This document shows, piece after piece, positions 1-17,760 of a DNA stretch of 32,000 bases. Location: NCBI GenBank assembly GCA_964648855.1, contig CAZYLT010000010.1, forward strand, positions 30,001 through 62,000. The letters run 5' to 3'. A program made the translations under genes and the position numbers. The first letter of the stretch is position 1, and each line of letters starts with the position of its first letter. Below the pieces are notes generated by a model. That model made no database searches. It saw only the letters and a list, made by a program, of their open reading frames with translations, and had not been told where the DNA came from. This DNA is from an uncultured archaeon (lineage in GTDB: Archaea; Asgardarchaeota; Thorarchaeia; Thorarchaeales; Thorarchaeaceae).

Positions 1-548
1 AGCATGATTAGCATCTGCCCTATTGGTCCAGCTCCAATGATCGCAACTGTGTCCCCGAGTTCTATGTCCGCCTCTTCTATTCCATGAACTACGCAGGCAA
101 GAGGCTCTGTTAATGCTGCTTTTTCAAATGGGAGAGAATCAGGTATCTGATGAGTATTCCATCTAACAACCGCTTCGGGAACCCGGATGTATTCCGCAAA
201 TGCTCCATTTACTAGGGTATTCTTAAGTTGTTTACAGAGGTTAGGATTATTCCTCTTACAGAAAAAGCAATTTCCACAAGGCGCGGAGTTGGTTGCAACA
301 ACTCTCATCCCTGGTTCAAATTGCTCTACGCCCTCTCCAATTTCCTCAATAGTACCAGCATACTCATGACCAAACAAAGCTGGGAGCTTTCTCAGGAGCA
401 GGGGGTGTCCTCTCTTGTAAGTCTTAACATCCGTTCCACAGGTCAATGCTTTTCCGATACGAATGAGCAGTTCGCCTCTCCCAATTTCAGGAACGTCTGT
501 TTCTTCATATCGTACATCTCCTATATCGTAGTACATCGCAGCTTTCAT
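1..548 (-). CDS. Zn-dependent medium-chain dehydrogenase (sorbitol/threonine dehydrogenase-like), 3' end runs off the window
   Basis: Not in the ORF track; translated manually: MKAAMYYDIGDVRYEE...LTCGTDVK...LFGHEYAG...CGNCFFCKRNNPNLC...TEPLACVVHG...IIGAGPIG. Shows catalytic Zn C/GHE, four structural Zn Cys and Rossmann GxGxxG. Alternative in-frame ATG at 560. Confidence 0.93.
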   Translation of the reverse strand, partial: MKAAMYYDIGDVRYEETDVPEIGRGELLIRIGKALTCGTDVKTYKRGHPLLLRKLPALFGHEYAGTIEEIGEGVEQFEPGMRVVATNSAPCGNCFFCKRNNPNLCKQLKNTLVNGAFAEYIRVPEAVVRWNTHQIPDSLPFEKAALTEPLACVVHGIEEADIELGDTVAIIGAGPIGQMLIM

Positions 549-16614: not shown

Positions 16615-17142
16615 GTGCCATTGTCGAAGGAAGCCAGGAACGAAATAGTAAGTGTTAGAGTCCGAATTCCACGCGATGTGTTAGAGAGGATTGACCTCGC
16701 TGCTGGACCGAATGGGCGTCAACGATTCATCTTGGAGTCTCTTCTCTGGCGACTTGACAAAGAGATTCCTCCGGTTGTTCTTGACCTGCTTGATGATGTT
16801 GATGAACTCAAATTGCGCGTGAAACACTTGGAAGAGGCACGTGGAACAAGTATCTACAGACAAGACCTCACTGAAGAAGTCCGAAAAGAGGTCTGCAGAG
16901 ATGACTTAGACCGCCAGATTCTCGCCTACTTTCTCCAACATAAGGGTGCAACAACCCCTGAGTTGGCGGAAGAGCTCTTGGATGATGAGAGTAAGAGACG
17001 TACTATTCATGACAGGATATCCAAGCTAAATGAAAATGCAGAAGAGATTCTCGGGACTGAAATCCTAGAATTCGAGCGGGGAGAAAGAGCAGGTAAACGT
17101 GGTGCTTGGTGGATCAGCAACATCAGCGCCTTGGTGGACTAA
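16615..17142 (+). CDS. putative DNA-binding protein: RHH + coiled coil + winged helix
   Basis: VSVRVRIPRDVLERID (RHH), LLDDVDELKLRVKHLE (coil), DDLDRQILAYFLQHKGATTPELAEEL..RRTIHDRISKL..GAWWI (wHTH). Confidence 0.8.
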   Translation: MPLSKEARNEIVSVRVRIPRDVLERIDLAAGPNGRQRFILESLLWRLDKEIPPVVLDLLDDVDELKLRVKHLEEARGTSIYRQDLTEEVRKEVCRDDLDRQILAYFLQHKGATTPELAEELLDDESKRRTIHDRISKLNENAEEILGTEILEFERGERAGKRGAWWISNISALVD

Positions 17143-17178
17143 CCAAATTCTTTAAAGACAAATCAACTTGCAAGAGGT

Positions 17179-17286
17179 GGGGTCGTAGTCTAGCCTGGAT
17201 AACTCGAGAAGGCTTCCTTCTCCAGTTCGTTAGGCACAAGCCTCCGGAGCTTGGCATCCCCGGTTCAAATCCGGGCGATCCCGCCA
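17179..17286 (+). tRNA. tRNA-Arg(CCG) with 30-nt BHB intron in the D-loop (17202-17231, position 21/22); encoded CCA
   Basis: Acceptor GGGGTCG/CGATCCC+G+CCA; D-stem GTCT/AGGC; anticodon arm CAAGC-CTCCGGA-GCTTG; T arm CCCGG-TTCAAAT-CCGGG; TTTAAA at 17151-17156. Confidence 0.95.
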
Positions 17287-17353
17287 CTTTCCAATTTTCT
17301 GTGCCATTTATAAGATGCCGTACGACATAGAAATTCGATTGAGACTGCCTATT

Positions 17354-17566
17354 ATGAGGACAAGCAAACCAAGATCGGCTCGATTGGAAGGGGTTTTGAT
17401 CCGCTTCACCAAGTATCTTAATGGTCCCTTGGGTGGGATTGTGATGGATAACTTGGAAGAGGGGGAAAGCTTCGTCTTGCAGACCGTTGATCATCTATTG
17501 AGGATAAGCAAGAGGAACTGCAAAGCCGTTGTTGAGCCAATTGAAAGTCCCTTGGTTCCACAATAG
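17354..17566 (+). CDS. small hypothetical protein (70 aa) between the two tRNA-Arg genes
   Basis: TATA-like TTTATAAG at 17306-17313, ATG 17354, protein-like composition, T-rich tract after the stop. Confidence 0.55.
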   Translation: MRTSKPRSARLEGVLIRFTKYLNGPLGGIVMDNLEEGESFVLQTVDHLLRISKRNCKAVVEPIESPLVPQ

Positions 17567-17650: not shown

Positions 17651-17760
17651 GGGCGCGTAGTCTAGTATGGACTCCTCGTAGTTTCTACTGCGGGAGGTGC
17701 GTATAAGGCACTGGCTTGCGGAGCCAGGTATCCCAGGTTCAAATCCTGGCGCGCCCGCCA
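17651..17760 (+). tRNA. tRNA-Arg(GCG) with 32-nt BHB intron in the D-loop (17671-17702, position 19/20); encoded CCA
   Basis: Acceptor GGGCGCG/CGCGCCC+G+CCA; D-stem GTCT/AGGC; anticodon arm CTGGC-TTGCGGA-GCCAG; T arm CCAGG-TTCAAAT-CCTGG; TATAAG at 17623-17628. Confidence 0.95.

Follow-up and report, generated by a model that had tools for sequence, protein, structure and literature searches.

A probable protein-spliced intron at D-loop site 21/22 of a single-copy tRNA-Arg(CCG) gene in a Thorarchaeote

Positions 17179-17286 on the forward strand of the window (the whole 32,000-nt stretch of DNA that was analysed) hold a tRNA-Arg(CCG) gene together with 30 extra nucleotides, 17202-17231, which lie at D-loop site 21/22 and are flanked by D-loop bases A21 and A22. 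The host genome, which we denote G000, is a Thorarchaeota (Asgard) metagenome-assembled genome (MAG) of 3.11 Mb in 62 contigs with an estimated completeness of 94.6%, and the nearest named relatives of an M24-family gene adjoining the tRNA genes all come from Candidatus Thorarchaeota MAGs. Outside the insert, the gene comprises an acceptor stem (GGGGTCG/CGATCCC) followed by U8 and A9, a D-stem (GTCT/AGGC), an anticodon arm (CAAGC-CTCCGGA-GCTTG, with the anticodon CCG at 17244-17246), a 5-nt variable loop, a T-arm (CCCGG-TTCAAAT-CCGGG) and an encoded G73 and CCA, the latter at 17284-17286. This copy is the sole tRNA-Arg(CCG) gene of the 94.6%-complete assembly, in which CGG accounts for 10% of the Arg codons in 717 long open reading frames (ORFs). 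Opposite the tRNA gene, on the reverse strand, lies an overlapping 123-aa ORF (17123-17494) that is probably spurious, since a genome of the same genus shows poor conservation directly 3' of the tRNA. Features of the locus and of related loci elsewhere in the genome are collected in Table 1.

Table 1 Features of the interrupted tRNA-Arg(CCG) gene, its neighbour and related loci (plain positions refer to the window, prefixed positions to the host genome)
Feature	Position	Strand	Evidence or remark
TATA-like box TTTAAAG, putative archaeal promoter	17151..17157	+	centre ~25 nt upstream of tRNA 5' end; putative function
5' exon: acceptor 5' strand, U8 A9, D-stem GUCU, D-loop AGCCUGGAUA, positions 1-21	17179..17201	+	100% identity to G001 ortholog
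BHB outer helix, 5' strand GCC; partner GGC 17233-17235	17193..17195	+	motif scan
BHB central 4-bp helix, exon strand UGGA; partner UUCG 17226-17229; two G-U pairs	17196..17199	+	motif scan
Bulge 1 UAA; predicted 5' cut after 17201	17200..17202	+	published BHB cut rule; junction matches ortholog
Predicted BHB intron, 30 nt, site 21/22	17202..17231	+	exact 30-nt gap in same-genus ortholog; strict BHB; deletion gives tRNA-Arg(CCG)
Inner helix CU/AG and 7-bp hairpin GAGAAGG-CUU-CCUUCUC, intron	17203..17225	+	motif scan, folding
BHB central helix, intron strand UUCG	17226..17229	+	motif scan
Bulge 2 UUA; predicted 3' cut after 17231	17230..17232	+	motif scan, ortholog
3' exon: D-stem AGGC, anticodon arm, variable loop, T-arm, acceptor 3' strand, G73, CCA	17232..17286	+	93% identity to G001 ortholog
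BHB outer helix, 3' strand GGC; part of D-stem once spliced	17233..17235	+	motif scan
tRNA-Arg(GCG), 32-nt D-loop intron 17671-17702 at 19/20, unrelated to 21/22 intron	17651..17760	+	470 bp downstream of CCG gene; ARAGORN, motif scan
tRNA-Arg(UCG) with 19/20 intron	G000:C4:18987-19096	-	exons near-identical to GCG gene, intron homologous
EndA alpha	G000:C6:63923-64177	-
EndA beta-like	G000:C4:31164-31424

Run in default mode, ARAGORN reported zero tRNAs across the whole window; in intron mode it placed the ends of the unspliced CCG gene correctly and mislabelled it tRNA-SeC(tca), and the Rfam tRNA model gave a partial match of 18 bits. When 17202-17231 was deleted in silico, the remaining 78 nt formed a normal cloverleaf that ARAGORN called tRNA-Arg(CCG). 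An initial sequence-only reading of this DNA had assigned the gene this identity and had warned that standard annotation could miss it; the identity was confirmed by the call on the spliced sequence, and the warning held for both ARAGORN and the Rfam tRNA model.

Next, we leveraged a second genome of the same GTDB genus (G001, identical to Ca. Thorarchaeota TEKIR_14, SDNP01000003.1), in which tRNA-Arg(CCG), tRNA-Arg(GCG) and the M24 gene stand in the same arrangement, with flanks that are 82-84% identical. The CCG gene of this genome is 78 nt long, lacks exactly 17202-17231 and is recognized as a full-length Rfam tRNA at 51.6 bits. A BLAST alignment between the two genomes stops at 17202 and restarts at 17232, and the TEKIR_14 sequence across the junction, GCCTGGATA directly followed by AGGCAC, is the same as the predicted splice product. 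The 42 nt upstream of the gene, including the TTTAAAG box, are identical between the two genomes, and pair 28:42 of the anticodon stem shows a compensatory double change (A-U in G000 vs. C-G in G001).

To locate possible splicing motifs, we scanned the cut pairs of the whole precursor exhaustively, defining a strict hBHBh' motif (a bulge-helix-bulge, or BHB, with flanking helices) as four pairs in the central helix together with 2 bp or more in each flanking helix. Exactly one strict solution was found, with cuts after 17201 and 17231, and its flanking helices measure 3 bp on the outer side (GCC/GGC) and 2 bp on the inner side (CU/AG). Sequence alone leaves the junction uncertain by a single base (A17202 = A17232); the register shifted by one base yields the same product and forms no BHB, so that the register cutting between 17201 and 17202 is alone in doing so. 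With the intron shuffled over 20,000 trials, the exact boundary carried a strict motif in 1.4% of dinucleotide and 0.8% of mononucleotide shuffles, and when the unshuffled intron was moved to each of the remaining positions in the mature tRNA, a strict BHB was seen at the observed site only. The sequence-only reading had proposed a 30-nt intron at 21/22, had drawn this same BHB and had derived from its cut sites a mature D-loop, AGCCUGGAUA; the site and length agree with the same-genus ortholog that lacks precisely these bases, the drawn anatomy is the unique solution of the scan, and the D-loop is that of the intronless ortholog.

The predicted minimum free energy (MFE) fold of the precursor lacks the BHB conformer, and the best BHB-constrained fold lies 6.9 kcal/mol above it. 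This gap falls inside the range that we calculate for canonical 37/38 introns of the same genome (0.6-10 kcal/mol), and the MFE fold is thus no argument against the motif. The BHB-constrained fold leaves the acceptor, anticodon and T arms intact, while the 3' strand of the D-stem is taken up by the outer helix of the BHB, so that the D-stem can form only after splicing. Because the 21/22 intron is known from a single sequence, its BHB carries no covariation support.

Surveying the wider family, we found the intronless gene matched in 83 of 86 genomes, mostly as contiguous 1-78 alignments. Almost every intronless ortholog read retains GGAUAAGGC, in a D-loop whose A20 the sequence-only reading had named as an Arg identity base, a putative role. 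When we searched by pattern for inserts of 20-50 nt at 21/22 in any CGN-type tRNA-Arg gene, G000 alone matched; the absence of such an insert from the other 85 family genomes indicates that the intronless state is ancestral and that the 21/22 intron arose within the genus. Gain on the G000 branch is the simplest account, as it takes one event vs. two for a gain in the genus ancestor followed by a loss in TEKIR_14. Read most simply, the sequences would place a recent gain of the intron within the genus, on the host species' own branch.

The CCG gene is not the only tRNA-Arg gene of this genome with an interrupted D-loop. The BHB of the neighbouring GCG gene consists of an outer helix UA/UA, a central helix GUAU/GUGC, bulges GGA and GUA, and an inner helix CUCC/GGAG, and its 19/20 intron is common to G001. 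An Rfam tRNA match at 17695-17757 (35 bits) proved to be a mis-registered version of the same GCG gene, in which intron bases serve as a false acceptor strand. The tRNA-Arg(UCG) gene, which ARAGORN labels Arg(acg) in intron mode, resembles the GCG gene closely enough to suggest that a gene already carrying the intron was duplicated or gene-converted and that its anticodon then changed.

Introns at 19/20 in CGN-type tRNA-Arg genes recur across the family (11 of 86 genomes, from 7 of 16 genera), and their bodies are dissimilar from one another; all four central pairs are kept in 13 of 17 genes. Read by eye and with no formal count, exon D-loop bases 16/17 appear to co-vary with the intron strand with which they pair. 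Many of the 19/20 introns, as well as the 21/22 intron, start with A-C-U. In one family genome (G012, C26:212300-213100), adjoining CCG and GCG genes are identical apart from the anticodon, including a 32-nt 19/20 intron, while its sisters G095 and G096 carry the intron in the GCG gene only. From these sequences, the intron in G012 looks to have spread between neighbouring genes by gene conversion. The 19/20 introns and gene conversion nevertheless leave the 21/22 intron unexplained.

We also took a census of tRNA introns in G000 by combining deletions with ARAGORN, a noisy approach that resolved single and some double introns and not all genes. Intron length was 30-33 nt in 16 of the 20 introns listed, regardless of tRNA position. 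D-loop inserts of ~30 nt each were also seen in tRNA-Ala(GGC) (G000:C11:10941-11048, forward strand) and in tRNA-Val(CAC) (C11:35454-35560, reverse strand), the latter called SeC by ARAGORN intron mode; the boundaries of these two inserts may be off, as their BHBs, as drawn, lack an outer helix. The canonical introns of tRNA-Leu(UAA) and of a tRNA-Met (G000:C4:19216-19334 and C4:24703-24836) have in common an exact 11-nt motif, AATGGGGTCAT, and GGGGTCAT is present also in the tRNA-Gly(GCC) intron of G000.

The genome encodes two paralogues of the splicing endonuclease EndA as well as an RtcB ligase. EndA alpha (187 aa), whose best match among solved structures is the Aeropyrum pernix alpha subunit (3P1Z_B, E 3e-49), keeps the Tyr/His/Lys triad, with K42 lining up with the K44 residue in the Crenarchaea-specific loop (CSL). 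The second paralogue (211 aa) has the full fold with Val in place of the catalytic His, as would be expected of a structural beta subunit. This combination of an (alpha-beta)2-type pair and a specific loop with a conserved lysine would, judged from sequence, place the enzyme in the broad-specificity class. In A. pernix, EndA cleaves a BHB intron out of a D-loop and a K44A substitution abolishes cleavage, and grafting the CSL onto the Archaeoglobus fulgidus enzyme confers cleavage of a D-loop intron (PMC3241643). An (alpha-beta)2 EndA with an L1 loop has been described in Asgard archaea, a Thorarchaeote among them, and broad-specificity EndA can cleave relaxed motifs (PMC5829648). The beta-like EndA additionally has a highly acidic N-terminal extension of ~35 residues, and a 425-aa ORF follows its gene directly, with overlapping stop and start codons.

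Collectively, these findings make it very probable that this Thorarchaeote has here a functional tRNA-Arg(CCG) gene, present in a single copy, with a 30-nt protein-spliced BHB intron at D-loop site 21/22; cleavage, ligation and refolding in vivo are what we infer from the splicing motif, the intronless ortholog and the enzymes encoded. The acceptor, anticodon and T arms would fold in the primary transcript while an alternative helix replaces the D-stem, with G15-C17 pairing with G23-C25 and U17a-A20 pairing with the intron bases UUCG. Two 3-nt bulges on opposite strands would then expose the scissile bonds to a heterotetrameric (alpha-beta)2 EndA whose catalytic subunit carries the CSL/L1 lysine, and this enzyme would cut after the second nucleotide of each bulge, between 17201 and 17202 and between 17231 and 17232. 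RtcB would ligate the exons, the intron probably being circularised too, and the D-stem GUCU/AGGC would form after ligation to give a normal 78-nt tRNA with its encoded CCA and the junction CCUGGAUA followed by AGGCAC.

Alternatively, the insertion might have inactivated the gene, leaving a young pseudogene and CGG codons that are read by tRNA-Arg(UCG). The insertion is recent enough that decay might not show yet, the UCG isoacceptor is present in the genome, and the CCG gene need not be essential, since CGG could in principle be read by that tRNA through wobble. We consider this very unlikely, however, because an inactivating insertion would have had to bring a perfect strict BHB in the right register, with a chance of 0.8-1.4%, and because exons, promoter-like box and CCA alike are intact and the one difference in the anticodon stem is compensatory. 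Neither decay of exons or structure nor a redundant intact CCG copy was found in the 94.6%-complete assembly. Reliance on the UCG gene would moreover not relieve the cell of the need for D-loop splicing, as that gene likewise requires it, and the cell must therefore process such introns anyway.

Another way to depart from a functional gene spliced at 17201 and 17231 is to accept the intron and move its ends, with cuts at a relaxed motif that produce a different mature D-loop. ARAGORN also calls tRNA-Arg(CCG) after deletion of precursor positions 22..54, 24..52 or 17..49, and a broad-specificity EndA is able to cut relaxed motifs (PMC5829648), but the four central pairs together with both flanking helices are found at 23..53 only, and the 23..53 product alone matches the same-genus ortholog in its D-loop, whose form is seen again in the other family orthologs read that lack the intron. 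We thus regard alternative cut sites as highly improbable. Scarcely credible, finally, are the readings in which the mature RNA retains the 30 nt and so has an enlarged D-loop or in which the insert is an artefact of assembly; the sequence does come from a MAG, and nothing specific speaks in their favour. With a D-loop of 40 nt, both the D-stem's 3' strand and the G18/G19 region would be tied up, a perfect splicing motif in the register that restores the ortholog sequence is not what faulty assembly would yield, and BHB inserts occupy the same loop in 16 further tRNA-Arg genes from 11 of 86 family assemblies (G000 included).

Taking the 21/22 insert as a spliced intron, we also searched for where it came from. 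Using blastn-short against the whole of G000, we found no copy of the intron beyond 13-nt chance matches, and a comparison with 19 other introns of the genome likewise returned nothing beyond such matches; a near copy elsewhere among the genome's tRNA genes, the mark of a transposed intron, was thus not seen. Exact-pattern scans did not find the intron core in the metagenome or viral contigs scanned, and a junction-spanning pattern had no match in metagenome contigs and matched G000 only among the 86 family genomes. A Pfam scan of the 6 ORFs between 13.7 and 21.7 kb revealed no integrase or mobile-element domain, with one of the six (16615-17142) matching no family at all. Gene conversion from the GCG neighbour, or a 'sliding' of its 19/20 intron, was considered and rejected, because only the first four bases (ACTC) are common to the two introns and the sites lie 2 nt apart.

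Intron gains in Asgard archaea have been reported as frequent, mostly terminal and BHB-compatible, with an unknown route (10.64898/2026.10.13.758758), and the missing donor copy and the lack of a mobile-element domain at this locus are in line with the conclusion of that preprint. As a speculative proposal, to which we attach a low probability, new BHB introns in Thorarchaeaceae could land preferentially in the D-loop of CGN-type tRNA-Arg and arrive without a DNA donor, possibly through a reversal of EndA/RtcB on the pre-tRNA and subsequent copying back into DNA. The proposal draws on the unrelated 19/20 introns in 7 of 16 genera together with a further independent intron at 21/22; if it were true, the G000/TEKIR_14 pair would be a before/after snapshot of such an arrival.

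What sets this locus apart is a 21/22 site that is unique in the family, a clean before/after pair within one genus, and two independently interrupted tRNA-Arg genes that adjoin each other. For genome annotation, the consequence is that the tRNA-Arg genes for CCG, GCG and UCG would all seem absent from this genome unless D-loop introns are modelled, as ARAGORN and the Rfam model fail on all three. For evolution, pairs of genes with and without an intron in one genus provide raw material on how protein-spliced introns arrive, a question left open by the preprint (10.64898/2026.10.13.758758). Knowledge of how such introns are removed is unchanged by the 21/22 case.

BHB introns in the D-loop are already documented in Aeropyrum, Thermoproteales and Asgard archaea, and the 21/22 intron is a clean recent example and no new kind. 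The sequence-only reading had described D-loop introns as best known from Thermoproteales-type crenarchaea, where non-canonical sites (20/21, 22/23 and others) are indeed on record as carrying BHB introns acquired after speciation (Sugahara 2008 and Fujishima 2010, reviewed in PMC4090602), but the host here is an Asgard archaeon, a group in which D-arm introns are now reported to be common and often overlooked by annotation (10.64898/2026.10.13.758758). Transposed introns of Thermoproteales occur as near-identical copies across tRNA genes (PMC4090602), whereas the 21/22 intron has no similar copy in its own genome, in the other family genomes or in the public contigs scanned. The pre-tRNA-Thr2(UGU) of A. 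pernix offers a canonical D-loop BHB intron and an (alpha-beta)2 EndA with a CSL lysine, as here, in a crenarchaeal hyperthermophile and a different tRNA as opposed to an Asgard sediment MAG; splicing was demonstrated biochemically and in cells for A. pernix (PMC3241643), while for the Thorarchaeote we infer it. Closer at hand, the 19/20 introns of Thorarchaeaceae share with the 21/22 intron the same loop, the tRNA family, a length of 30-34 nt and support by a BHB, and differ from it in a site 2 nt upstream, in sequence and in the exon bases that enter the central helix. The Asgard D-arm introns (10.64898/2026.10.13.758758; curated Atabeyarchaeia/Freyarchaeia genomes, PMC11291895) likewise pair an Asgard host with a short D-arm insert that is revealed by a compact relative, and they resemble the present case in a canonical BHB boundary, gain on a terminal branch, no detectable donor copy, an (alpha-beta)2 EndA and a tendency to be missed by standard finders (here ARAGORN and Rfam). 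The preprint, by contrast, focuses on Jordiarchaeia and Atabeyarchaeia, its main text does not contain 'Thor' and it does not mention the tRNA-Arg(CCG) 21/22 site, while the intron described here belongs to a Thorarchaeote whose intron load is moderate.
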